This document shows, piece after piece, positions 24,871 through 47,500 of a stretch of DNA of 64,000 nucleotides. The translations under genes were made by a program, and so were the position numbers. The DNA is taken from NCBI GenBank assembly GCA_000934665.2, contig KZ538517.1, positions 62,001 to 126,000 on the forward strand, written 5' to 3'. The notes below the pieces were generated by a model that had not been told where the DNA came from, did not search any database, and saw only the letters and a program-made list of their open reading frames with translations. How positions within the stretch are numbered: position 1 is the first letter of the stretch; each line of letters begins with the position of its first letter. Source of the DNA: Catajapyx aquilonaris (lineage: Eukaryota).

Positions 24871-26570
24871 GGTTGTAGTACCATCCCTACCTGCCACAGT
24901 TCTCCCTCTGGGTCGTTCACTCATTGACAACCGTTTGACCTGGAGGGGATAAGCGGGGTCTGCGCGTGTAATCCAGATTGACCTCCAAGCGAGGGATTCC
25001 CCGAGGGACCACTAAGCCTAAACCTTGCACTAAACCGCCATGGGTCATGGGTCACAGTGTCAATGGGACGCAAAAACACTGCGAAGACCCTATGCCTTGC
25101 AGGTGGACAGCAAGTCTTGTCCTGTCAGTGGGTGGATGCAGTGTTGGGTACAGCGTTCACTGCTGCGTCGCGGCAGGTCAGGGTGGACACGAGAGAGAGA
25201 GAGGTCACTCACACGCGATACTTGGCCCCAGAAATCCTGACCTCGACTCGGGGACCACGGGTGGATAAATAGAAAGGAAGGTCCATCCCATTGCCCCAGT
25301 CCCCCTCCCTTCTCTGCAACTTTGTTGTGAATGCTTACATGAGTTACATCAATGGTGGATTATGAAGGCGGCCATAGTTAATCCAGTGACTGTCCCCACG
25401 GGAGTCACCAATCACGGAGGCCAATGATGTTCTCTATCCGTAGGTTCCAGAATGCGCTGCCCGATTAAAATTTAGTATTTGCAAAAAGTCATGTTAGCTT
25501 TTCCCAAGGAAATTGCAGGAAACTTCAACAGTATGAGTGTATGACAGAAGCACTCACTTGTCAGTCATCTACTGATTTGATTTCAGTAACATGAATATTA
25601 CAGCTTTATTGAAATGCCAAGAAAAAATGGGTCGAACCAAATGTTCATCCTTATCATACATCACAGTATATCCCAAGAACAAGGGTACCATAACAAGGAG
25701 CAGTTTCCTCGTTACCTCACATGACTAATACAAAAATTCTGAAGCACTGCTCTCAATTGCTCACGAAAATAAGGATGGAGAGGCCAGGAGGCCCAACTTC
25801 TTGACACTGCCGTAGTCATGATTGTTGATATAATTCAGACTTCAAATAATTTGACTATATGACGGTTGTCTTCCCCAGCAATGGTCAAGAAGTCTTGACT
25901 ACACGTCTACACACTAACAGTAAGTACCTGAAACTGAAGTGAAATCGGATTACAATGAACAGACTGCTTCTCAATGCAGAAACTTGTCAACCATTTATTT
26001 CGTGCCTGAAAGTGTACAAAATGAATGTCAACAAACCTTGAGTACAAAATCAGTTTTCCTCTTTACTGACACCAATATGAATATTTTGACAATTCTCCCA
26101 GCATCAAACACCACGCAGCCAAGGATGAGTAAGAAAGTAGACCAAAACAGTTTGTGACAAAACATTCTCCATTCTATCAACACCAGAGCCAAGTCACATC
26201 GGGTGGAAAAGCAGTCTCCATCAACTCTCAATGTAATTAAGCACCGATGTACAGTACAGCCCAATTGCTTTCAAAGCCAAGCGTTGCAAAATAGAACACA
26301 CCTTGCCATTAGGATTTCAAATGTCAAAAGTGTACACTATCACACACTAATGGTATTAAGTTAAGCGAGGATTAGTAAATATAACTCATTTTGTTTTGGC
26401 ACAATCTCACTGCCTCAACTAAGTTTGCAGTGTGATTTTTTAAATCATTGCAAGTGTGTGGAGACTAGTCTTCACCAGGAATTCATAGCTCTTAACACCT
26501 AGAAAATTTTAAATAAAAAAGAATTCTTCTCACACTTTGCAGCTTCTTGAATTAGTTTCAAACAAACCAA

Positions 26571-26576
26571 TTTATT
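26571..26576 (-). terminator. Candidate PREP polyadenylation signal AATAAA (others at 25994-25999 and 25605-25610)
   Basis: tttatt on the + strand, downstream of the stop codon. Confidence 0.35.
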
Positions 26577-26787
26577 TAATATAATGTACTTTGCAAATGC
26601 ATAAATTGAAGTGCTAGAAATGTGCAAAATTACATCACAATCCACATGATATTGTCAACATCCTTCCAATCAAATTATAATGCCCCTGTGCAACAAAACA
26701 CAGATATATGGTATTTTCAAAATAACTTTTCCAAGTTAAAAAACACTGCCATGGTATGTCCATCAACCTGTATTGTAATTTGATCAA

Positions 26788-26853
26788 TCACTTTTTGAAC
26801 TCTATTCCTAGTGCCTCAACCAGGAAGCAGAAGATATCCGTGTGTTCCTCAAT
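26788..26853 (-). CDS. PREP: PREP last coding exon ([21 protein letters not shown])
   Basis: ttcag| acceptor, TGA at 26790-26788. Confidence 0.93.
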   Translation of the reverse strand: MEEHTDIFCFLVEALGIEFKK

Positions 26854-29800
26854 CTGAAAGAAGATGCAATTAACTTTACATCAGAAATCCAACTTCTCAG
26901 TAAGATTTTCAAATGGCCACAACTCACCACTTTGGTAGTGGGTTTCCCACCTCCATGGCCTGCTTTCGTCTCCACCCGAATCATTATGGGATTGGTCTGC
27001 AAGAAATAATGTAAGTTAATAAAGACACTGTAAGCATTGTGCGTGTCATAATTTAGTTAATGTGTTAGTGGAAATTTTGTACACACTCGCCCCTGTGAAC
27101 TCATCTGCAAGTTTGGCATGTGAACATGTGAACTTACTCTCACCCTTGAAGGTGAGGGTACAGGAGCAAGTGGATATGAATGTCCACGAGCTTTTCACCT
27201 ATAAAAATATGCACCAAATTCTGAAACATGCAGTATGCACACTGTACTCCCAATTATTCGTGAATCACCAAAGTTAAAAATAAACTTCCGAAAGAATGCC
27301 AATATGTATCACAAACAAAACAATACAAGAGACTTTTTCCAGAAGACAAACTAAAAATCTATTCTTAGTTTTATTATTTTGATTAAACCTTATTTAAAGC
27401 AGCATACAGTATATACAGCAGTTCATTAAAAACCTGTGAAAAGCACATTTTTGCGGTGTCTAGGACCATTTTTTAATTATCCGTGTTTTCCTATTATCCA
27501 AGCACACTTGTGCATTCATTAACACAGATAGTAGGGGAGTACAGTGCATACAGGGTGTTCCAAATTCGTGGATCAAGCCCGGGCATTCCCCCCTTTCATC
27601 TCGTGTGGAATTCGGGGTCATCTCCGGCTTTGTCTAGGGTGGGATTTCCGATAGACGAACCACCCGGGGGAGCTCACAAAATGACCATAGTGCCGACATT
27701 GCACTGCACACTGCACATCCCCTCCCAGTCACCCTGTCCTCAGATCACGGCTCTTCGTTGTCCAAATTCATGTACACCTTGGCAAATAAAGGTCCTTGTC
27801 AAAACCTCTGCTGAGGTACGGCACTACACCCAATTATTATTATTACACTTGTAAAGTTCTATGGTTTTCATAGTGCACAACTGAAACAACCGAATCTTTG
27901 GTCATGTTAATAACCCAGGGGACCAGGCATGAAATATTATACTGTATACCCTTTTCTGTCATGGGTTGTCTTAGAACTTGAACTGCTCATAGAGATATAC
28001 GGTGACATACCTGCTTGGAGCAAGGTCCCAGCACATATTGTAACTGGGCAATGTGCTTCAGAGAATGCAAAGGCACAACTCGATCATCATGGTCAGCGGT
28101 GAGCAACAGCATGGCCGGATACTTCAGAAATGGCAGAAAAGGAGAGTTCAAAATTAAATATCACAATCATATTGGGACAAGTGGTAAATATCATTGCAAG
28201 AAAAGGGAATAAAAGAAAGAAGAAAAAAAAACAGGCATTCAAATCATGTTATTACATCCCTGTCAAGAGAGACTACAAATGTTTCTTTACCTGATAATTT
28301 CCTTCTGGAATTCCGATGTTGTGCAAAGGAGAGAACTTGTAGAGGTTATCAAAGTGTTCCTTGTCATCTGAGCAGCCATAATCCGAGCTCCAGGCATAAC
28401 CAATGGTAAACTTATGAAAGCGAAGCATGTCTAGAACACTAGCAAAAAATTAACAAAATTAAAATTTTTTCATTGGAGCAGTGAGGACAAGGACAGCTCA
28501 TAACATGTCTGTCACATAAGGACACTATTTGACAGACTTAGAACTAGTATTTAGCATAAAATTAGATTAAATTTTAATTTATTACAATAAGACAGACTTG
28601 GAGGTGAACATTCTAGAGAAAATTTTCAATAAAGCACGAGGCACATCCAACAATCAAGAAAAAGTAACTGAAATTACTGAATACATCAAAGATACTCTCC
28701 ACTAAGGGCATGTCAATATGATCTGGATTTTTTTTTAAGCATGTAAACATTTCAAATAGCCAATATCACCTACACCAATACGTGAATATCATTAATTTTT
28801 TTTACAAGACAGTTTTGAATATATAGGCAACAACTGAAGAAATAATGATTGTGCACTTACCCAACTTGAGCAATAGCCGCCCCAAAAAGCTCTGGCCTCT
28901 GATTAACACAGGCACCTACAAGTAGACCCCCATTAGATGCCCCTTGGATTGTCAGCTTGCCACTACATGTGTACTTGTTCTCTATCAGAAACTCAGCTGC
29001 TGCCTGAAAGTCGTGAAAGCCATTCTGCTTCTTAAGGAGACGGCCGCAGTTATGCCAGGATTCGCCATACTCACTGCGAAAGATGTACTGGTGTTGTTAC
29101 AATGTATTATTACATCCCAATTCACAATATGCTTCTTCCTGCCACTGTTCAATTAATACAGTTCATAGTGATGGCACCTTTTAAAGCAATAGGTGGGGTT
29201 AACAGAAAAGTTCAAATTCCTGAAAATTCCATCTGAACTGGCCAAGCTAGTGAAAGTTAAAGGATAGGGTCCGGATGTGAAGGAAAGGCACCTGCACATT
29301 TGTCTCTCCTTTAACCTGCTTCCAGTCACCACCTGGCAGCAGGAAAAGATGTCTGCTGAGAAGCACATCCTATTGCACATAATTTTTTGTTAGAGGAATG
29401 CAGGAGTTGGCCTATACTGGCCAGTCCTTCCCTCAGGGACTTAATGACACAAAATGGCATGTCAGCCATACAAATGATCCAGAAAAGTCTTCACCCACTC
29501 CTACAGAACAAATTGCAAATTTCTTTGGGGTAAGAGCCATTGGTCCCATTATTGCCACAGATGAGAAACCAAAAATCGTAAAAACCAAAAAGTACAGTTT
29601 TCAGACTTTTCAATTAATCAGCAGACATTAGTGGGCCAAATTTCATCACTCTCAGTAGTCTGGGAGTGGGTTAGGTGGCTGTGACATACGTACATACATA
29701 TGGACAAACATAATTATGAAGATAACTGTCCTAATAAAACTCATGCAACCAGCCACAGCCCCCCAACTCCCTCTCTTTTCCCGTGCGCTTAGCAAGTCCC

Positions 29801-32800
29801 CTATCCCCGGACGTGGAGCCCTGTACCAAATCGTATTCGGGCGGACAACTTCTGAACCATACTGGATGTACCTAAAGCATCAAATCCCATTAAGTTCTAG
29901 TTTTCAGATCCACAGTCCCAGCCACCTGCATGCAATTTGGACCACATCGGGGATAGGGAACTCGCTAAGCGCATGGCCTTCCCCAAATGGCTAGATAGGG
30001 AGTTGCAGGAGGCTGCATGCAACCATCCTTCGGACTGCCAGAAAAACAATCATGTTCCTCTGATATACATTTAGATGCAAAAGTTGCTCAACACACTAGA
30101 CTGATCCTCAAATTGTTATTAATACAGCAATCAAAACAGCCTTCTAAGAAACAATTTTGCAGAAATGGTATGGACACTTGTCAATGGTCAGATTACCCCC
30201 TAGCGTCCGTACCATTTCCACACCGATAGTACATTTTTAAATCTGAGGACTAAGAAGTACAGTTCAAGGACATGAACTATGAATGTAACTAACCCTCCTC
30301 CTCGTATGTTGGGGATGGCGAGTATGCCATCAAAATGTTGCATGAAGACAACCCGTGTAACACTGAAGGTGGGCTGGATGCTGATGTTGAAACCCCCATA
30401 ACCATAGAGCAAGCAGGGGGCAGTTCCATCTCGCCTTAAGTTGCGCTTGTGCACAATGAACATGGGAACCTTGGTGCCATCCTTACTTGGGTAGAAAACT
30501 TGTGTCGTCTCTAAAAGGTTTGGTTCGAAGCCCTCCAGCTTTATCTCACGGAAAACCTAATTGACAAAAGCAAAAATTAAACTTCATGTTTCAAAAGAAA
30601 ACAGAATACTGATGCCCTTATTAAAAACATAGCCTACCTCAGGTTGAAGAACTGCTTTAGTTAAATCACAGCGGTAGATAATCCCAGGGGTGAGGAATGA
30701 AGTGAACAGGTAAAAAATCTCTGTGTGCTCCTTTTTCCCTGAATATCCTGTGATTGTTCCAACTTCCAGAGGAAAGGTCATCAGCAGGTTACCAGTGCTC
30801 AGGTCACGCAGTTCCAAAACACTCTGCAAAACCACAAACATCTTTATCCATTGTTTATGACAACACTAGCACAAATTCCCATGTTTCCCTTTAACCGGTT
30901 CTGCAACCAGTTCTCAGCAGAGTGACTCCATTCCACAAACAAGATTGGCAAATCACATGAGCATGATTAGAATTGACTTTTTCTCATTCATTCAAGTAGA
31001 CTTGTGCGGATGAAGTGAACTCGGAAAACGGGAAGTGGCAGGTCACCGGAAGTTGGACATGAAAACCCTGGGTAAATCCCTAACACACTTGGTTCAGGAA
31101 TCCACGAAAACTAATTTCGAAATCCAACGATAACCCGTCCGTAAAGTAGACTTGTGCAGATAGAGTGAACCCTTAAAACCAGAAATGGCAGGTGACTGGA
31201 AGTTGACCATGACACCTATTTAGGTCACGCTTAATCCGAATATGAAAACTGTTTGTCGCTATCTCTTGTGGTTGAGGCTCTGACACCTGTCCACAGACAG
31301 ACAGACAGAGCCGTTCTATAAGACTATTTTCCGATGTTGAGAAGAAGTCTAAAATTAATTAAACTGAATATCCCCTTACCCCGTTACACCCTCATATATG
31401 TATGTACAAATCAGGTGGGGGGAGGCGGAGTGGCGCTGCGGTAACGTGTGGGCCCACAGATGGGAGGGTCCCGGGTTCGATCCAACCCAGGGGTCTCCCC
31501 CCTTCATCTTGTGCAGAGTTGGGTCGTCTCTGGCTTCATCTCGGGTGGAATCTCAGATAGACTAATCCCCCCCAGGGGAGTTCACAAAATGCACCGTTTG
31601 AGACATTACACTGCCCCTCCCAGTCACACTGCCCATGGGCCCGGGCGCTTCTTTCAAGACTCCAGTAGGTATTGTACTACAACAGTATAAATAAACGTCC
31701 GCACTACATACCTCTTGAGGAGGTCAAGCACTACCCCAATTATTATTATTACATTATTACAAATCAGCTGGGATCAAACTAACAGAGTGAATTCCCACAA
31801 TCATAAGACCCATAATGTGGTGGCTTGGGCACTACTCTTGCTAATGTAATGTAATGTAAGAAAGAAGATTAGTGGAATACATGGGCCCATCTTTGTCATA
31901 TTACACAGTGGATGAGAGTGATGTAGAAGACAGGTGAAGAAGACTCACTTACTGACCAATGATAGGCTAAGAAGATATCACTAATAAAGATGTGACATTC
32001 ATATGGCTTCACAGTTTCTATTGCTTGCCTTTAAAAAAGCAATGGTTCTCATTATACACACCTTGACATCATGTATGTAACACACAACCAGCTTGTTCTT
32101 ATCTACACATGCAGCCCAGTCCAGCACATCTTTGGTGTGTTCAGGAATTAGTGTGGTCCAGTTCTCAGGGCTAGGGTTGGCCAAGTCTATTCCTATCAGG
32201 CGGTAGTTGGGAGCATCTTTGTTTGTCCTGAACACGCACACTGACCCCTCATTGGTTACATACTGGAAATTAGTTTCAGTTAATATTCTTCATATCTAAG
32301 CAAGGTGCATATAAGTGAAAATGGGACTGGGAATTTTTGAAACCTCAAAGTCTGCCTCGAACTTGTGCACTATCTGGGTGATGGTGAGCATTCCTTCCAG
32401 TCCATTTGGAAGAGACTCCAAATCACAGAAGTACAGGAGATTGTCTCGGCAGTCTTTCTGTGGTGTTATCAGAAGATAGCGCCCACAGTCTGATACCTCT
32501 GCACCTCTACGAAAGTTGCACACATGCTTTAGACCACAAATCCTGGTTGAATTTATCATTCTTCCAGTTAAAATTACAGCACAAGGAAAAAATCAGCAAT
32601 ACCAGTTACACTTCTGTGACTTGCAGTTCCCAAGATATAAAATCACCACAACAAAACCAAATTGCACAAATCCACAAGCACTAGGGGGTTTTTCTGAGAC
32701 AAGTTCATAATAATATGAATGCTTCTCATCAAGCACAAAATCTAACTCAAAATTTTGTGCTGATGGGCAAACATACACATCACTTTTTAACTCTGCCTTC

Positions 32801-35800
32801 CTGTCTGAAACATTAGAAGAGACAATGATACTGACTCTACTGCACCTGTTATAGTACATGTTTGAAACAACTCACATTAATTTTATTTTAAGTTCCTTTT
32901 GAAGTCAATCACCCTGGAACTGAACAGGCAGAAATTTTCAAATAACAATGGCTGTAATTTAGTTAACAGACTCTTAAATTCTTCCAGGGGAAAATTTTTC
33001 AGACTGCCAAATTCAAGGGTAAACATGAACCTACACTGTATTGAGCCTCAAACTTGTTGACCAAGGGAACTGGTTGGATGGGGCCCAAAAAGCCCCGAGG
33101 AAAGTTGCGCATGTCACAGAAGTACACCTGGTTGTCCTTACAACCCTCCCGTGGAAACACCAGCAGGTAATTTCCACAGTGGCTCACTCGACATGACCTA
33201 ATGTGTCCATTATGTTACAGATACAGCAAGTTTCAAACAAAAGAACAAAAAATTAAAACATTATTTTATATACACTCACATCCGCCACTTTGGTTCATCA
33301 GGAAATTCAACAACAAGGACATCCTGATTCTGGGGTGTCCCTACTCGATGATAGTAGAGCTTCTGGTTCTCATTTGAGGTTGTTTCAGAGCCATCGGTTT
33401 TGCCAGCTTGCTCTGGATACCGCTGCCAGATTGAATGCATACGTTTTAGTTTACCAGTCCCCTTTCTTCAAGAAATACTCCAGCATATTCTACAGCTTAT
33501 CAAGTTACTATCACTCTTATTTCCTCTCTGAATATAGAGAGCAATCAAATAAATTATCATGCATTATACAGTATTCAAAAACTTTATAGATTATGCAATG
33601 AGCTAGTGAGAGTACTAGGCCCTACTGCCCAGTAGGTTCTTGTCATTTATTTTGTCATTTGAATTGATAGTAAGATGCTCCATCAACGTCAAAACCACAT
33701 GGAAATTCTGCAGGGCCATGCACACACACACTCTCTCTCTCTCTCATTAAGGCCACTATTTATTTTATTTTTTATTTATTTTACCCCGTGCTAGGCATCA
33801 AGGGCCTCTTTGGGGGGTGGCACACCACCATCAGTTTTCTGAATTACTTTTTTTCTTTTTCTCTCCGGTGCAAGGTAAGGACAGGGATATGAGGGAGGGA
33901 CACTGGTGCTAGTGCATTGTCTACATATTGGGGGTCGTGTGCAGTCCCTCAGGGGGCCTGTTCGCCATAGATGACCCCCTAGGTGCGGGATCTGAAACCC
34001 CCCGCACCTCCTCAGGTATGGGACAAGGATAGGAAGGGAAGGAAGCGGCTGTGGCCTGTTATTACGGAAACAACTCCAGGATTTCCCTGGAGGGACCGTG
34101 GGAAACCACAGAAAACCACGGTCAGAGTTGCCGGCACCGGGGATCGAACCCAGGACCTCCCGATTAGCAGCCGGATACCAAATCCCCTCCGCTACCACTG
34201 CTTCGGTCATTAAGGCCACTAGCTAGTTGTCATGAAATAATCTGACTGATACTGTCAGAAGAAGTGCAATGCAAACAAGCACCTCTCATACTTTGTTTAG
34301 TTTCCTAGTAATGAACCTTGCATATGATACTTACACCATAGAATATTCCTTTATGATCATGTGTCCATGTTATGGATGAAAATTTCACTTTTTCAAGCAC
34401 TTCTGGAAAGTTCTCGCCTGTTTGTGAAGAATGAGACATTTATCAAATCTTATCAGCACTTTAGGCATTTTACAGCCAAAATACAAACCTGTTGCAACTT
34501 TTTTGAAGTGAATGGTAATCCAATCAGAACCACTACAACTCAGACCATAAGCAAAAACTTCGCCATCTTCTGAAAATGCTGTTTCAGTCAGGGCAACAGT
34601 CCCATCTTCTGAGAGCAAGTTGGGGTCTAGGAAAATTCTTGGCTCACTCTCCAATGAATCTTGGATGTAAAGCACACTGCAAATAAAGTACATAATGATA
34701 ACATTCTTTAATTTATAGTAAATGCCATTGGTTATTACCTTTGGTTTTGCAGGCCCGTGTTCTTGTAGAAAAAGTAGCGAGATCCTCTCCGAAATGGGCA
34801 AGAGTACTTGGGAAAATTCCACAGTTCTGTCAACCTGGCTTTGATCTCTGCCCGGGGGCTGCATCGCTCCAGGTATGGTACTGTTATTGCATTCTGATCA
34901 TCTACAAACTTCTTTGTCTCTTCACTATCTGGGTCTTCCAGCCATCGGTATGGATCAGACATCTGAAATTGTCTTCCCTTTAGTGCACTTTGATCAACAA
35001 GCTTGATAGCCTACCCTTCTTTTAAAATTATAGTCTGATAGTCTAAAAGATAGTCTGTTCAACACATAGTCCACAATTGATGCACTTACACCAGAGGTCC
35101 ACGCAGACTCAACATGCAGTCATTTTGGCATGAAGAATTTCCACAGAAATCATAGGAAGTAAGCTGATTGTGAGTTGTGCATTTGTCATTATACCTGCAG
35201 TTCAAGTACATTTGGCTTTTTTATTTAGCGTAAACTAATATTGATACGCTTACAACCCAAATACGTATATGCAAACAAAGATTATATCATGTAACATGAA
35301 TTCTCTAGCTCTCCAGATTGATCCATCATGGTCATTATCACAGTAAGCTCCAAAAATTCTTGCTGCCTCCTTCCGGCGACAGATGTGGATTGTTGCAGTA
35401 ATGTTGGATGCTTGGACATTTGCAGCACTCTGATTTGATATTTCCAACTTGTAATTAAAGCCTGGGCATTATAGTATGGAATGCCTGCAGCACCTCCATT
35501 TTGACAATGTCAAGTAGATGTCTGCAGGAATCTAATGTAATGGATTTTGTATGGCATCGTATCACTACATTGCATTGTATCATATCGCATCCATATCACA
35601 CGGCACCCTGCACACATCCTGTTATCAAAACAGGGCCATTAAGACATGCAATCTCATGATCCCAGATTACAGGCATGGCAGAAGTCACTGCACAAAATTT
35701 TATCTAATTTGAACAGGGTACTTGGTCACAAAAATGGTCTGATGAATATTGATGGAAAAAGATCTCTCTGAAGACCTCGCATCTGTTTACTCCAGTGATA

Positions 35801-36688
35801 TTGAGTCGCACCACAGGACAAGGATCTGACTCTGCTCCTACATCCTTGTCAGCTTTAATGCACCATGGCCCTTCAAGCTCTGGTTATTACATAAACCTCT
35901 GAATTTGAGAAGCAACCCTGAGAGCTAAATTGGTGGTCTACTGGCAGAGTCACCCAAATCGAAAAGGTCTTTTTGGGGTAAGAGGTAGACAAAGGTGGAT
36001 ACCACTTTTCCATCACCTTTTCTCCCTCTCATTTCTACTTCCACCTGTCCCACTCAAAGAACGAAGGAGAAAACCCCGCCCCGCTCTGCTTTACCTTGAC
36101 CCCATGGTAATTGTCAACGACTGAGTCGTCCCTCCTGGCAGCTGGATACTGGAACTTCATGACAGCGCGGTCCCTCCTGCTCCCCCTGCAGTTGGAGGCA
36201 GATGCGGATTCCCCTGTGGTGGCTGCGGCTGCTGAACCCAGTCGCCGTACGCTTCCTTGCAGGATCTGCAATGATGCAGGATGTGAAAGCAACACTCTTC
36301 TGTGGGATGAGCCCTCCTCCTCCTGCTCTTCCAGGGTCGGCAATCAGTGACGATTGGGTATGTATAGGTGATGATGACCATCACTTACCTTGTGGGTGTT
36401 GGTGCCGAAGAGACGTGGGTTCTCCCAAGGGTGCTGTAGCAGCTGGATGTACTTTGTGTGCCGTGGGGAGGTGAGCAAGAAGGGACGTTTTCCCGGCGGC
36501 GCGGGTGGAGAAGAAGAAATGGGATTAGCGGGACTTGTGCTGCAGAGGGCGGCGGGAGGAGTAGCGGTCTCTTCTGAAGAGGAGGAGGAGAAGGGGACAC
36601 GGGGACGGGAGTGGTGGTGGTGGAGGAGGAGGAAAGCCAAGCGACGATGAGAACAGCCAGCAACAGCCGCCGGCGGAAGTGGCGCCAT
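26788..36688 (-). CDS. PREP: Prolyl endopeptidase (prolyl oligopeptidase, S9A). Spliced CDS: join(36688-36389, 36265-36095, 34962-34739, 34676-34489, 34417-34335, 33422-33280, [33197-33035 OR 32506-32344], 32262-32062, 30823-30638, 30556-30294, 29073-28861, 28438-28291, 28121-28011, 26996-26928, 26853-26788)
   Basis: All exons have GT-AG boundaries and compatible phases. Core from ATG 36160 is 2124 nt (707 aa). Motifs: [48 protein letters not shown] (Ser nucleophile at 28937-28935), [14 protein letters not shown]. Confidence 0.97.
26928..26996 (-). CDS. PREP: PREP exon 14 ([23 protein letters not shown]), contains the catalytic His
   Basis: gcag| acceptor, |gtgagt donor. Confidence 0.95.
27565..27846 (+). 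mobile_element. Diverged, 5'-truncated copy of SINE family B in PREP intron 13
   Basis: Colinear similarity to 31480-31750 (ttcatct.gtg, gatagac, cacaaaatg, cccctcccagtcac, gcactac..ccaattattattatt). Confidence 0.8.
28011..28121 (-). CDS. PREP: PREP exon 13 ([22 protein letters not shown]...), contains the catalytic Asp
   Basis: Translated by hand; aag| acceptor, |gtatgt donor. Confidence 0.95.
28291..28438 (-). CDS. PREP: PREP exon 12 ([21 protein letters not shown]...SPLHN...Q)
   Basis: Translated by hand; GT-AG, phase 2/0. Confidence 0.96.
28861..29073 (-). CDS. PREP: PREP exon 11 (EYGESWH...QGASNGGLL...AQVG), contains the catalytic Ser
   Basis: Translated by hand; gcag| acceptor, |gtaagt donor. 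Confidence 0.96.
29575..29740. mobile_element. Possible short Helitron/Helentron-type fragment
   Basis: gccaaatttcat motif followed by an ACAT-rich tract, as seen in insect non-autonomous rolling-circle elements. Confidence 0.3.
29750..30015. mobile_element. 266-bp MITE with imperfect TIRs and an 8-bp TSD (hAT- or P-type)
   Basis: Termini CAGCC...GGCTG; inner inverted blocks caactccct.tc and tgcgcttagc.agt.ccctatccccg; TSD catgcaac at 29742-29749 and 30016-30023. Confidence 0.85.
30294..30556 (-). CDS. PREP: PREP exon 10 (VFREIK...[10 protein letters not shown]...YGYGGF...NIRGG)
   Basis: GT-AG, phase 0/2. Confidence 0.96.
30638..30823 (-). CDS. PREP: PREP exon 9 (SVLELRDL...FTSFLTPG...QPE)
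   Basis: GT-AG, phase 0/0, conserved motif. Confidence 0.95.
30994..31400. mobile_element. Helentron/DINE-1-like non-autonomous element remnant
   Basis: Two diverged tandem units with a 150-bp period (aagtagacttgtgc at 30994 and 31144), followed by a (GACA)n tract, an architecture typical of DINE-1/HINE elements. Ends not defined. Confidence 0.5.
31415..31757 (+). mobile_element. tRNA-derived SINE (family B) in PREP intron 8
   Basis: A-box-like TGGCGCTGCGG, B-box GGTTCGATCC, (TTA)n tail, 10-bp TSD tacaaatcag at 31405-31414 and 31758-31767. Confidence 0.88.
32062..32262 (-). CDS. PREP: PREP exon 8 ([20 protein letters not shown]...HDVK)
   Basis: ccag| acceptor, |gtgtgt donor, phase 0/0. Confidence 0.95.
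32344..32506 (-). CDS. PREP: PREP exon 7b, mutually exclusive variant ([28 protein letters not shown]...KFEADFE)
   Basis: 163 nt, tag| acceptor, |gtttca donor, phases 2/0, open frame. Confidence 0.93.
33035..33197 (-). CDS. PREP: PREP exon 7a, mutually exclusive variant ([28 protein letters not shown]...KFEAQYS)
   Basis: 163 nt, tag| acceptor, |gtaggt donor, phases 2/0, open frame, homologous to 7b. Confidence 0.88.
33280..33422 (-). CDS. PREP: PREP exon 6 ([14 protein letters not shown]...[11 protein letters not shown]...EPKWR)
   Basis: gcag| acceptor, AT|gtgagt donor (phase 2). Confidence 0.95.
33759..34206 (-). mobile_element. tRNA-derived SINE (family A) in PREP intron 5, full length
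   Basis: A-box-like TGGTAGCGGAGGGG, B-box GGTTCGATCCC, A-rich tail, 15-bp TSD tcattaaggccacta at 33744-33758 and 34207-34221. Confidence 0.9.
34335..34417 (-). CDS. PREP: PREP exon 5 ([28 protein letters not shown])
   Basis: acag| acceptor, |gtaagt donor; VKFS..WTHD.KG motif. Confidence 0.95.
34489..34676 (-). CDS. PREP: PREP exon 4 (SVLYIQ...FLDPN...SGSDW...VAT)
   Basis: Phases 2/1, GT-AG, conserved motifs. Confidence 0.95.
34739..34962 (-). CDS. PREP: PREP exon 3 ([12 protein letters not shown]...NTGLQNQ)
   Basis: ttcag| acceptor, |gtaata donor, conserved motifs. Confidence 0.95.
36095..36265 (-). CDS. PREP: PREP exon 2 (ILQGSV...[24 protein letters not shown]); canonical Met at 36160
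   Basis: Acceptor cattgcag|ATC, donor AAG|gtaaag; conserved POP N-terminus. The acceptor choice is less certain than the coding part from 36160. Confidence 0.85.
36389..36688 (-). CDS. PREP: PREP exon 1, putative N-terminal extension (100 codons, [22 protein letters not shown]...)
   Basis: ATG in CAAGATGGCG context; open frame up to a consensus donor AAG|GTAAGT, phase 0. Confidence 0.65.
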
Positions 36689-44500: not shown

Positions 44501-47500
44501 TGGCAGAAATACCGCTTTCTACCATATGTCACCACCCATATATCTCTCATCTTGGAACTTATTGAATCGTGTTCGTATATGATTGGGGTCAATCAGGTGC
44601 ACAATCGATAAGCCTCCGATCCCCTCTGCGTGTAAAACCTTCCCCATAGCGTGACCGGTTAACTAGAGCAATATTTCGCACCGGACGATCATTTCAGTCA
44701 CGGTAGCCCAGGCGCTATCACCCAATAAACGATTAAACATGTGCGAATTATGCAGATTTTACAGCACGCGCTTGATTACTGCCAATGCTAATTTGACTAC
44801 TCGAAGTGAATTAGTAGATGCGTTTGCACCGGCAGCAAGAATTCTCCTGGTAACATTTTTGGGTGGGTACAGCCTGCTGTGTGCTTTCGGTTCCACAGGG
44901 CTATATAGGCCCACCAGGCAGGAAACGTAGAACGAAGTTATATGCCCCGTGTATCGATCCGAATTATCCCATCGGATACATACGACACCGCAACAGAGCG
45001 TAAGAGTGCGCTCCAATGGCACAAAATAAATCCAAACAAACAGCGTGCACTCCCATACTAATGTAGTGTACTCACGTGAGTATCGGTGGTACCTCCTGGA
45101 GTCTGATGGTGGAGTGTCTTGATTGATAGAGCTCCATTGCCGTCGGAGTGGTACGGCCGAAGCGACGCTGACGGTGGATCCGGTGGGGGTTGGACAAGGA
45201 AGCCATGGAGGTTCTGACATCAAAGACTGACCTAAGGGCAGGGTGCATGGTAGACGACGGTGTCGAGACGACGGAGGCGGTGGAGGTGGTGGTATCGGCG
45301 GTCCTCTCCTGGGGGCAGTCACTAGCCACTCCACAAATCCGGCCCCATCCACAATCGTGCTCTTGGACCACAGCTCGTGGGCATGTCGAAGTGCCCTCCG
45401 TCTCTCTTTACTAGCACCCATACACTCCTGGAATCCAGCCGAATTAACCTCTCTCCCTATTAACCCAAATGAACTCCTCCTTACCATTAGAAGGCGGTAC
45501 CATTCCCTGATATCTTCTCTGGACTTGAGTAAAATCCGACCTTCCCTCGGAAGTTGCAAAGCCACCAGACTTTGGCCCGGCTCTCTTCTGTCGACCCATT
45601 CGATTGATTCCACATCCACCAGCTTAATCTGGAGCGAAGGATCCAAAGTGTGAAACCCTCTTTAATAGTCGCCACTAATGGTTCGTCGCGTCTACAACCC
45701 AGTCAACATCATGGAAATACCCCCATCGGGCGTTTAAAAAAAAACAGAGAGTTTATTGTGTAATTATAACCGCGTTTGTAGCCCATCAAGCCTCATTGGA
45801 AGTATGGGAAACTCTCCATAAACCGAATTCCCAGCCCCAGGCCGAATTATGTGGGAAATTGGATTCATCTTAAATTTCATAGTTAAAAAATTATAAAAGC
45901 GCGATCGAAAAGCAGCTTGCGTTCATCTGCATCAGCAAGTGGATACGTCATTACGCAACTGAGAGGATACACCGATGTTTTTTTTTTTTAATTCTCTCTC
46001 CAATCCCCCCCACCCAGCCCACTTCCAGGCTACGCTTTGCATAATGAACCCGAGCGGTGACGAGCATCACTCTGCACCCAAGCCGTAATTAACGAAGCTG
46101 ATGAAAATACAAATCTGTATAAGGTCGGGCACATAATAAAAGGGGGGGAACGGGGTTAGGTTTGCCTTCCCACTTTGTCCCCGCACCAATTCGGATCCCA
46201 AATAAGATTCAAACTAGTACTTTCCCACCTAGCAAATTACACCTCTTTCAACACCACCAGTCTCGCGTTTCAAAGGAGATTGGTAATCCACTAAGGTCTA
46301 CCGGAGGGAGATGTTCCGCCAAGCCTGAATTGGAAGTCCCTGCAAACCATTCGCAAGTGGTAATACACCGCGCAAAAATTAATTGGAGTACCAACACCTT
46401 TGTAAGCCTCTTAGCGGGCAAACTTCGCTCATTAATACCCACTTGTACCTTTTTTTTGTTTGAAAAATGTTCCCTTGAAAATAAGCGGGGGTCCGCTTTT
46501 AATTGAGTACGGCGGGTTGGCAGAAAGGGGACACCCTCCCCTGGTGTTTAGCATAGGCGCCATTCATTTTCCTTTCAAATGAGGGGTTGAGAAAGCACCC
46601 GATTTTGGCTGCTACTTCCTCCAATCAGGGACCGGCTTGTATTCCCATCACGGACAGGGTCTATCGGTGCTTAGGGATATAGATTTGTCCTGCAATCAAT
46701 AGCCCCATGTGCACGTGTGTAACCTACCTTGAAGATGAAGTCGCCCATATCAGAGATGTGGGATGCTGAGGCTCTCTTGAAGCAGTGCAGATAATCGGGT
46801 GTGAGGATAAAGAATCTTTCCTTCCATCTGGAGAAAAGCCGATCTCTTTGCTGGCACAAGACCCCTTTCTTGATCGCAGAACTTGCAGGAGACCCACCAC
46901 CATCCTGCAGATGAAAAGTACAAAAAAAAATCATATTGAACTTTTTTTTTATCTAACTCTGTGGTTCAGCCTCCCCGAACAAGCCAGCTTATCTAAAATT
47001 AATTGCCAAGCATCACACTTTCTGCCAGGTCCAGTAATATGACAGTTGCGGTTCTGTGAAATATGTCACTAGACTCTGAGGGACTGCGGTAACTAGATTA
47101 GGTTTGGCTCGACGCATGCGTCAAGTTGAGCCCATGTAGCAAGTTTGGATCTCATAAAAAAAAGGTCAAAATATTTTTTTCACGCTCATTTAAGTACAAA
47201 CTGTCCATAAAGAGTGGCGTGTTTTAAAAGGGACATTTGACATGTAACCCCTTGCTAATGGCATTATGATCGATTATTTGCAATGAAATAAAAAAATAAA
47301 ACCGGGTGTCCTTTGTCCCCATTCTAAGGAGAAAGAGGGACAGGGGACTTGCCTCCAACTTATTATTGGCGAACACGCTTGAGGAGGAGAAAAGTCTTGA
47401 GTTTAGAGGGGGCTTTTTCAAGTCCTAATTGTTCCCGGGAGATAGAGAAAACGACGGAGGCAGAAAAAGCAACCCGAGAAAGAGAGATAAGTGACGAAGG

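Follow-up and report, generated by a model that had tools for sequence, protein, structure and literature searches.

Two homologous exons lie in tandem within the prolyl endopeptidase (PREP) gene of the analyzed stretch of 64,000 nucleotides (hereafter, the window), and they raise the question of whether one gene supplies its enzyme with either of two versions of a single propeller blade. PREP is a much-studied drug target whose substrate selection is still debated, and arthropod genes commonly contain mutually exclusive exons that arose by tandem duplication.

Gene Structure and Product

The PREP coding region (26788..36160, minus strand; ATG at 36160 and TGA at 26790-26788) was located by tblastn using insect and scorpion PREPs as queries, and the propeller exons were covered by three PREPs. 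It comprised 14 coding exons which, with exon 7b, gave a product of 707 aa in a joined frame open throughout; the 13 introns, all GT-AG, were derived from spliced contigs of run X1. The product was 75% identical over the full length to the PREP of Schistocerca, which bears the PF02897 (N-terminal seven-bladed beta-propeller domain) and PF00326 domains. Comparison of the exon peptides with solved PREPs revealed catalytic equivalents at Ser554, Asp641, Arg643, and His680, in the motifs G-A-S-N-G-G (Ser at 554), D-H-D-D-R (D641 and R643), and A-G-H-G (H680), and in the PREP tree the window gene branched next to winged insects. The window holds an intact arthropod prolyl endopeptidase gene, and its predicted product can be assigned to peptidase family S9A, as both the propeller domain and the catalytic residues were found.

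Exon Pair and Reading Frame

Exons 7a (33035..33197) and 7b (32344..32506), both on the minus strand and 163 nt in size, encode an REGC-type and a QKDC-type (insect-like) version of blade 4, respectively. Exon 7a is preceded by TTAG and followed by GTAGGT, and exon 7b is preceded by GTAG and followed by GTTTCA; both are entered in phase 2, with two codon bases supplied by the upstream exon at 33280, and left in phase 0. The neighboring constitutive exons, also on the minus strand, are exon 6 (33280..33422, 143 nt), which ends in phase 2 (AAG TGG CGG AT) and whose joints 32506>33280 and 33422>34335 were found in a spliced contig, and exon 8 (32062..32262, 201 nt), which starts in phase 0 (TAT GTA ACC). 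On the same strand, the intron 5' of 7a (33198..33279) is 82 nt in length, with a GC content of 0.26 and a purine-rich stretch in the last 20 nt before AG, and the intron separating 7a from 7b (32507..33034) is 528 nt. No third copy of the exon was detected by hmmsearch with an exon profile in the six frames of 26500-36600; besides 7a and 7b, the profile matched only the plus strand at 32600-32641, and weakly (score 0.3, E = 0.21).

Each of the two exons had one stop-free frame, with one to three stops in the other two frames. Their ungapped identity was 23/55 residues and 76/163 nt, and the net charge was +2 for 7a and -6 for 7b. The anatomy proposed in a sequence-only reading of this locus (two stop-free exons of 163 nt running from phase 2 to phase 0 between AG and GT) was thus reproduced together with its coordinates, and the residue identity and charges given there were obtained again on recomputation.

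The joined frames exon 6-7a-exon 8 and exon 6-7b-exon 8 were both open. When 7a and 7b were included together, a stop appeared inside 7b, far 5' of the last junction, and when both were skipped, a stop appeared two codons into exon 8, which bears out the earlier claim that inclusion of both or neither breaks the frame. Since 163 nt is not a multiple of 3, an open frame admits only one exon or the other. Exclusivity would be enforced at a minimum by the reading frame, as inclusion of both or neither leads to an early stop and, presumably, to nonsense-mediated decay. The two exons are adjacent, homologous, of equal length and phase, and able to use the same flanking exons, and they represent a real tandem-duplicated pair that is probably mutually exclusive.

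Location of the Exon in the PREP Fold

Both exon peptides matched the same part of PF02897, namely, positions 234-281 and 233-279 of 414 for 7a and 7b, respectively, with scores of 22.2 and 22.9 bits; the cut-off is 24 bits, and a shortfall is to be expected of fragments of 54 aa. In the alignment with solved PREPs, residues 1-53 of 7b corresponded to residues 237-290 of 1h2w and residues 4-53 of 7a to residues 240-290, with the R-E-G-C of 7a lying over R252-E253-G254-C255 of the pig enzyme and Q-K-D-C occupying this place in 7b. The exon segment thus corresponds approximately to residues 236-290 of pig PREP, that is, to blade 4 of the propeller with the Arg252 and Cys255 positions, in agreement with the assignment made in the sequence-only reading. 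According to the available portions of PMC5589771 and PMC5446394, Cys255 lines the S3 pocket, and the peptide 249-256 forms a blade-4 loop at a distance of no more than 5 A from the inhibitor. The designation of the exon as a substrate-gating segment was overstated, since it is loops A (189-209) and B (577-608) that are discussed as gates in these portions. The exon encodes blade 4 as a wall of the S3 pocket, including the loop 249-256 facing the active site.

Use of Exon 7b and Possible Use of Exon 7a in mRNA

A single spliced contig of 2583 nt from run X1 joined exon 6, exon 7b, and exon 8 with 7a skipped (joints 32262>32344 and 32506>33280) and had no differing letters. Exon 7b is therefore the exon in use in the observed mRNA. 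No contig covering 7a was found in run X1, which was the sole usable run and was represented by contigs, in which rare forms are dropped, and the depth of this run was 0 in two bins together spanning 32566-33239. Of the junctions suggested for verification, those joining 7b to exons 6 and 8 were thus observed, whereas those of 7a were absent from these contigs. The donor of 7a scored 5.1, above 6 of the 13 confirmed donors of the gene, and is thus average for the gene, whereas its acceptor scored -9.2, below all 13 confirmed acceptors, when rated with a matrix derived from these acceptors themselves (13 sites only); across the gene region, which has 636 AG dinucleotides, 79% scored at least as high.

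The reading favored here, which we consider reasonably probable, is that the blade-4 exon was duplicated in tandem, with 7b as the default version and 7a as a rarely or conditionally used replacement, exclusivity being enforced by the frame and the choice possibly steered by an intronic element. According to this scheme, duplication of the 163-nt exon would have left 7b with the derived Q-K-D-C loop and the G-A-E start common to insects, whereas 7a would retain the ancestral R-E-G-C loop and would be spliced instead of 7b rarely or under certain conditions. The 7a form would be an enzyme of 707 aa in which the S3-side wall of the pocket is more basic. We infer that 7a is used at the present day and that RNA pairing plays a role; a difference between the two forms in substrate preference, gating, or redox behavior, as proposed in the sequence-only reading, would be hypothetical.

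Alternatively, 7a may once have been spliced as an alternative exon and then been silenced too recently to have acquired a stop or an indel, the gene making the 7b enzyme only. This agrees with the spliced contigs, which contain 7b alone, and with the acceptor score, which by the gene-derived matrix does not stand out from that of a random AG; however, weak acceptors are usual for regulated exons, and 7a has kept its AG and GT ends as well as its precise length and phase.

Selection on Exon 7a

Synonymous differences between 7a and 7b were saturated (pS = 0.91), with a pN of 0.42; the identity at the first, second, and third codon positions was 27, 33, and 16 of 54, respectively, and 14 of the 23 shared residues were encoded by different codons. 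When 3000 neutral copies were simulated at the observed nucleotide divergence, the number of identical residues averaged 10 and peaked at 18, never attaining 23; the likeness of the two exons thus far exceeds chance. The GC content of 7a was 0.515, compared with 0.26 and 0.35 in the flanking introns, and its in-frame coding log-odds was +13.5, compared with a mean of -19.7 and a maximum of 11.2 for 663 intron windows. Saturation of synonymous sites with retention of residues shows selection through most of the history of 7a, while the exon-like GC content and the codon log-odds above those of all intron windows argue against long neutral drift. The codon comparison thus shows that 7a has been under long purifying selection and is not decaying, its Pfam profile score is as good as that of 7b, and the earlier proposal of an old duplication with both copies retained as coding is supported by the same values.

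In the exon tree, the 7a branch was very long (0.9, compared with 0.15 for 7b), which would fit relaxed constraint and specialization equally well. A word-index search of protein collections gave no close 7a-type segment, and the identity did not exceed 53% among 1.84 billion representatives. Exon 7b was 63-76% identical to the corresponding stretch in 22 named PREPs from insects and scorpions. The long branch and the lack of close relatives in the searched collections speak for recent silencing of 7a, as does the fact that a 54-codon frame remained stop-free in 9.5% of the neutral simulations. Nevertheless, the selection acting over most of the history of 7a, its exon-like composition, and its retention of positions conserved family-wide make silencing a rather unlikely explanation, and rare or conditional use of 7a is preferred.

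Exon Pairs in Malacostracans

The same exon is carried as a pair of REGC-type and Q(K/Q)DC-type versions in malacostracans. The Panulirus ornatus isoforms XP_071518100.1 (X1) and XP_071518101.1 (X2), which are models of the NCBI pipeline, are 735 aa each and differ at 25 positions, all of them within residues 267-317, that is, in the homologous exon. Like the window pair, they are of equal length and belong to the PREP family, and the flanking residues (..KWRI and Y-I/V-T-N..) identify the variable exon as the one found twice in the window; G-A-E and Q-Q-D-C in one version are replaced by a basic third residue and R-E-G-C in the other. The exon, however, has 51 codons in P. ornatus and 54 in the window. 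Two krill-like contigs of mRNA size (2869 and 2873 nt) encoded proteins of 704 and 703 aa with either version between identical flanks, and both versions were found in tandem in gene models of Petrolisthes (two species) and Chionoecetes. All ten a-type rows had [K/R] as the third residue together with R-E-G-C, and all five malacostracan b-type rows had G-A-E together with x-x-D-C; this is the two-site pattern that distinguishes 7a, which starts with S-C-R, from 7b, which starts with G-A-E. Judging by these sequences, the homologous exon pair is alternatively used in malacostracans.

The sequence-only reading knew of no mutually exclusive splicing in PREP. No report of it was found in the literature searched, so this part stands; however, the X1 and X2 models of P. 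ornatus already encode exactly such a swap.

Candidate Docking Element

The segment 32601..32631 (minus strand), located in the intron between the two exons and unique within the window, was the sequence with which 7a and 7b each gave their best antiparallel pairing. The complementary site in 7a (33108..33132, minus strand), which covers the codons around Y-F-C-D, formed 20 Watson-Crick pairs, 3 G-U pairs, and 2 mismatches over 25 positions (-31.2 kcal/mol); the site in 7b (32411..32435, minus strand) formed 18 Watson-Crick pairs, 5 G-U pairs, and 2 mismatches over 25 positions (-29.6 kcal/mol in the sense strand and -20.4 in the antisense strand). The sense strand is the better pairing strand because of the G-U pairs. 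No other inverted repeat of the region ranked above these two pairings, whose ungapped helix scores were 45 and 40; each score was reached in 1 of 400 dinucleotide shuffles of the intron and both in none of 400. The core 32607-32625 is common to both pairings. The paired Y-F-C codons are identical in 7a and 7b, in contrast to the different codons of most shared residues. In the equilibrium fold of 32320-33290, the core of the element paired with 7b with a mean probability of 0.87 and with 7a with a probability of 0.0. Thus, the element is complementary to one site per exon and the predicted pairings would exclude one another, as in a docking/selector arrangement. The element may steer the choice by pairing with the Y-F-C-D codons of either exon, never of both together; this would either hide the exon engaged or place the 7b acceptor in a looped-out segment. 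Considering the weak plus-strand match mentioned above, it could also be the relic of an inverted partial copy of the exon. A metagenome scan for sequences of relatives gave two contigs resembling mRNA and a single false match, and nothing else.

The element could also draw 7a and 7b together, which, along with the early stop that arises in 7b when both are included, would suit a mainly regulatory "poison" role, with inclusion of 7a next to 7b shifting the frame, triggering nonsense-mediated decay, and tuning the PREP level. Such a role needs no conservation at the protein level, whereas 7a keeps PREP blade residues with synonymous sites saturated, and the homologous a-type exon occurs in full-length open reading frames of Panulirus and krill-like transcripts. 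It is therefore considered very improbable, and replacement of 7b by 7a remains the preferred reading.

Comparison with Known Systems

As in arthropod clusters of mutually exclusive exons controlled by competing RNA pairings between docking sites and selector sequences (Dscam1, srp, and others), to the extent covered by the available text, the window contains tandem homologous exons and one element with one site per variant and a single pairing at a time, and the duplication model outlined in the available part of PMC6071210 fits this arrangement. Unlike these clusters, the window has only two variants, with the putative selectors inside the exons and the docking element between the variants, and frame incompatibility alone already yields exclusivity at the protein level. 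Exons 7a and 7b of human ATE1 likewise form a mutually exclusive pair within a gene encoding an enzyme, with competing RNA structures reported in the accessible part of bioRxiv 10.1101/2020.06.04.134791, although this gene is unrelated and belongs to a vertebrate. Mammalian PREPs (pig 1H2W/1QFS and human 3DDU) share the fold and catalytic residues with the window product, and their R252 and C255 are kept in 7a; no second version of the blade-4 segment was found among the solved PREP sequences searched.

If real, the exon pair would be a means, natural and genetically encoded, of exchanging the only propeller blade that touches the bound ligand, and the alternative states of residues 239 and 252-254 are found repeatedly, both in the window gene and in several crustaceans. 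Comparison of the two recombinant forms would directly test how the wall influences sensitivity to thiol reagents and the preference at P3/P4. The pair would also add an enzyme to the arthropod examples of mutually exclusive exons known in splicing biology, as a small, tractable two-exon case with putative exonic selectors. It should be noted that nothing fundamental is changed, and the pair is already implicit in public annotation.

Origin of the Pair

The exon may have been duplicated separately to give the window pair and the malacostracan pair, in which case 7a would resemble the a-types through retention of the ancestral loop and convergence; we rate this slightly below an even chance. 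In the exon tree, malacostracan a- and b-types formed one clade (95/90), which has a shorter loop in common and excludes 7a, and this leaves the orthology of the two pairs in doubt. The exon order is also reversed: the a-type exon lies 5' in the window and 3' of the b-type exon in the Petrolisthes and Chionoecetes models. Moreover, R-E-G-C is also present in scorpion and pig PREPs.

It is doubtful, though conceivable, that the REGC/QxDC pair is one ancient pancrustacean invention that predates the split of Malacostraca and the insect lineage, swaps the whole blade and the charge of the S3 wall, and survives in malacostracans and this lineage, winged insects having retained the derived QxDC version only, with the choice made here by pairing of the intronic docking element with exonic selectors. 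If such selectors are true, the synonymous sites of the Y-F-C-D codons would be constrained.

Against independent duplication, 7a shared 14-19 of the first 27 residues with a-type rows (17-19 with six decapod or decapod-like rows) and 8-13 with malacostracan b-types, whereas 7b shared 16-21 with b-types and 12-16 with a-types. The AU test likewise did not reject the grouping of 7a with a-types (p = 0.373, lnL loss of 6.3), which cost less than the grouping of 7a with 7b (lnL loss of 15.1, p = 0.233). Finally, a third, partial copy with an R-V start and an E-R-G-C loop was found upstream in Chionoecetes, so an ancestor with the order a-b-a would be possible.

Structure of the Exon Pair and Use of Exon 7b

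An intact prolyl endopeptidase (PREP) gene was found on the minus strand, with its bounds determined by tblastn with three arthropod PREPs and by the splice joints of public contigs. The coding region, from the ATG at 36160 to the TGA at 26790–26788, comprised 14 coding exons, among which were two homologous exons of 163 nt each, namely, 7a (33197–33035) and 7b (32506–32344), both on the minus strand and both bounded by an upstream AG and a downstream GT. The upstream exon 6 (33422–33280) ends at 33280 leaving two codon bases, and 7a and 7b are each open solely in the resulting frame. An ungapped alignment of the two exons gave identity at 23 of 55 amino acids and at 76 of 163 nucleotides. An earlier sequence-only reading had proposed this exon pair, and its coordinates, length, flanks, frame, and identity were matched letter for letter when the minus strand was read, while the net charges that it gave (+2 for 7a and −6 for 7b) were reproduced. 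Its argument that only one exon can be used per functional mRNA also held: the frame from exon 6 to exon 8 (32262–32062, minus strand) is open through either 7a or 7b, double inclusion leads to a stop within 7b, and with double skipping a stop follows two codons after the start of exon 8. A third copy of the exon was searched for in the PREP introns, and none was found there.

The product with exon 7b contained 707 aa, had an identity of 75% with Schistocerca PREP, and retained the equivalents of Ser554, Asp641, Arg643, and His680. Contigs of run X1, a public run of unspecified kind whose contigs proved to be spliced, contained 13 joints with CT..AC ends across 26500–36600, which agreed with the exon map. 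One contig of 2583 nt was identical to the window sequence and had joints 32262>32344 and 32506>33280; this contig, in which exons 6, 7b, and 8 are connected and 7a is skipped, is proof that 7b is used in mRNA. Exon 7a was uncovered by run X1 contigs, and the two depth bins jointly spanning 32566–33239 were equal to 0; since such contigs drop rare forms, the run was taken solely as proof of 7b use.

Evidence for and against Maintenance of Exon 7a

Identity between 7a and 7b at the first, second, and third codon positions was 27, 33, and 16 of 54, respectively, and differing codons were used at 14 of the 23 common residues. The proportion of synonymous differences was saturated (pS 0.91), whereas pN was 0.42. 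Among 3000 copies simulated neutrally at the same nucleotide divergence, none reached 23 common residues (mean 10, maximum 18), and 9.5% remained stop-free. The GC content of 7a was 0.515 vs. 0.26 and 0.35 in the flanking introns, and none of the 663 intron windows (maximum 11.2) reached its in-frame codon log-odds (+13.5). The donor score of 7a (5.1) was average for the gene, being higher than that of 6 of the 13 confirmed donors. The acceptor score (−9.2) was lower than that of all 13 confirmed acceptors, with a matrix built from these 13 sites only, by which 79% of 636 AGs in the gene region scored at least as high. The branch of 7a in the exon tree was 0.9, compared with 0.15 for 7b. The evidence for and against 7a, taken together, points to an exon that was preserved in coding form through most of its history, the acceptor of which is now weak; this is the profile of either a regulated minor exon or a recently silenced one.

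The duplicated exons themselves were confirmed, and their proposed interpretation, an old duplication kept under selection and giving two isoforms, was partly supported: the age of the duplication and its selection were borne out, whereas it is inferred that this organism uses 7a and that the isoforms differ in function.

Homologous Exons in Other Arthropods

In 22 named PREPs from insects and scorpions, the corresponding segment had 63–76% identity with exon 7b. Among longer proteins, a word-index search with 7a gave two candidates, neither of which was significant, and phmmer against 1.84 billion representatives gave 50 matches with identity not exceeding 53%. Most of these matches were exon-sized open frames on genomic contigs ending at the same donor position. 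In a few of them, which had R-E-G-C and a basic third residue, the score of 7a was equal to or higher than that of 7b, and one of these was a Portunus trituberculatus model. A profile was built from such a-type segments and then used to find crustacean cases.

In Panulirus ornatus, RefSeq isoforms X1 and X2, of 735 aa each, differed at 25 positions, all within residues 267–317, which are exactly the homologous exon, with G-A-E/Q-Q-D-C in one isoform and S-S-K/R-E-G-C in the other. Of two krill-like contigs, one of 2869 nt encoded a protein of 704 aa and the other, of 2873 nt, a protein of 703 aa; each contained one version, spliced to flanks that were identical. For each of Petrolisthes cinctipes and P. 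manimaculis, a model of 825 aa contained the two versions in tandem, and a model of 766 aa contained the b-type only. In the read-through models, the b-type and a-type were separated by an 8-codon bridge (residues 331–339); if these models are true to the genomic sequence, no intron could fit in so short a spacer, and the choice in Petrolisthes would be enforced by steric exclusion. The Chionoecetes opilio model contained three exon copies, and the crab cluster may have three members; the third, partial copy (residues 278–302, with an R-V start and an E-R-G-C loop) preceded the b-type and a-type. All 10 a-type rows had K or R as the third residue together with R-E-G-C, and all five malacostracan b-type rows had G-A-E together with x-x-D-C. 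At the sequence level, this two-site pattern is the same as that of 7a and 7b. Alternative use of the homologous exon pair is real in crustaceans.

The swap is already present in public annotation, as the P. ornatus isoform pair shows. A search of full-text literature other than subscription journals and supplements, judged in part from titles and the beginnings of abstracts, found no description of mutually exclusive splicing of PREP, of which the earlier reading had likewise been unaware. The present analysis contributes a pattern that recurs across lineages at the S3 wall, together with a candidate RNA-pairing element that can be tested.

It should be noted that the examined insect pairs labeled "isoform X1/X2" by NCBI were rejected as exon swaps, as their lengths differed and they contained b-type segments only; in the insect isoform clusters examined, two short members do not span the exon. 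A metagenome scan with the a-type profile reduced 122 pattern matches to three loci, two of which were mRNA-like contigs with a single exon version and had a barnacle-like S-E-G-C loop (L001) and Q-D-G-A (L002). The third (L003) was a false match, being without a tblastn match to four full-length PREPs. In one model of the moth Plutella xylostella, the b-type segment was present three times in tandem, in nearly identical form (residues 265–408), and a sequence of the bug Eurygaster integriceps contained a second partial copy far downstream (residues 581–606); these extra copies are either recent duplications or artefacts of assembly or modeling.

Phylogenetic Analysis

In the tree of 21 full-length PREPs, the window protein was sister to winged insects (support of 97 for insects and of 93 for the window protein with insects against Malacostraca). 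The exon tree comprised 49 segments over 54 columns; in it, 7b was grouped among insects, the malacostracan a- and b-types formed one clade (95/90), and 7a was a long branch outside it. Within the first 27 residues, 7a had 14–19 residues in common with a-types vs. 8–13 with malacostracan b-types, and 7b had 16–21 in common with b-types vs. 12–16 with a-types. In AU tests, neither the grouping of 7a with a-types (p = 0.373) nor that of 7a with 7b (p = 0.233) was rejected. The order of the exons was a-then-b in the window and b-then-a in decapod models, and the further upstream copy of Chionoecetes had an a-like start and loop. The pairs may stem from one ancient duplication or from two parallel ones, the exon tree and both AU tests being compatible with either.

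Position in the Protein Structure

Residues 1–53 of 7b corresponded to 237–290 of 1h2w, and residues 4–53 of 7a corresponded to 240–290 in solved PREPs; both exons were placed on identical positions of Pfam PF02897 (22.9 bits for 7b and 22.2 bits for 7a). The R-E-G-C of 7a was aligned over pig R252–C255, where 7b has Q-K-D-C, in agreement with the earlier assignment of the segment and of these two motifs. Peptide 249–256 is the propeller blade-4 loop that holds Cys255, lies within 5 Å of a bound inhibitor, and adjoins loop B (PMC5446394). Cys255 is included among the S3-pocket residues, and Arg252 is included among the ligand contacts, in a second source (PMC5589771). In passages of PMC5446394, the loops discussed as gates are loop A (189–209) and loop B (577–608). 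Therefore, what the exon encodes is blade 4 with the wall that faces the active site; the gate lies elsewhere, and the earlier designation of the exon as a substrate-gating segment was overstated.

Candidate RNA Switch

Within 32240–33300, the two top-ranking inverted repeats had one arm in common. This arm, a candidate docking element at 32601–32631 (minus strand) in the 528-nt intron between 7a and 7b, was the best antiparallel partner of both exons and paired at their homologous Y-F-C-D codons. Over 25 positions, pairing with 7a (33132–33108, minus strand) included 20 Watson–Crick pairs, 3 G-U pairs, and 2 mismatches, and pairing with 7b (32435–32411, minus strand) included 18, 5, and 2, respectively. 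Pairing was scored by ungapped helix and dinucleotide shuffles, as whole-sequence duplex folding gave huge interior loops; in 400 dinucleotide shuffles of the intron, either helix score was reached once and both were never reached. The duplex energies for 7a and 7b were −31.2 and −29.6 kcal/mol in the sense orientation and −29.0 and −20.4 kcal/mol in the antisense orientation, respectively. The element sequence was unique within the window, and the Y, F, and C codons were identical between 7a and 7b, although most common residues differ in codon.

It is equally possible that the element is what remains of a partial exon copy in inverted orientation, in view of a weak plus-strand match of the exon profile at this site. 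As a candidate docking element, it matched the docking-site/selector logic and the duplication model set out in the abstract of PMC6071210, with the candidate selectors lying inside the exons. In the equilibrium fold, the element was paired with 7b with a probability of 0.87. As 7a is transcribed before 7b, the element could capture 7a first.

Other Features of the Locus

Ahead of the ATG at 36160, the frame remained open over a further 61 codons (36161–36343, minus strand), and residues 37–89 of the 775-aa long isoform from Schistocerca were aligned to 36235–36092 at 38%; judging from these sequences, a longer N-terminal PREP isoform may exist here, comparable to the 775- and 709-aa forms of insects. 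The PREP intron region 33914–34250 had a summed run X1 contig depth of about 8800, with numerous contigs, variants, and loose ends, which suggests an element repeated many times and/or strongly transcribed; tRNA and Rfam scans gave 0 matches window-wide, this region included. The 1238-nt intron was overlapped by other transcripts or repeats: run X1 contigs at a depth of 30–69 covered 30881–31554 inside it, a joint in its region (31539>31614) had non-canonical CT..TG ends, and a further joint connected 31590 to 27700 with 17 additional letters. The Pfam scan covered 125 of the 135 long open frames of the window, the 10 within the PREP gene being excluded, and gave one sub-threshold match and a single clear match, a PH-domain fragment (PF20399, E-value = 1.1e-07) in an open frame at 46674–46952 on the minus strand, which is probably an exon of a neighboring gene.
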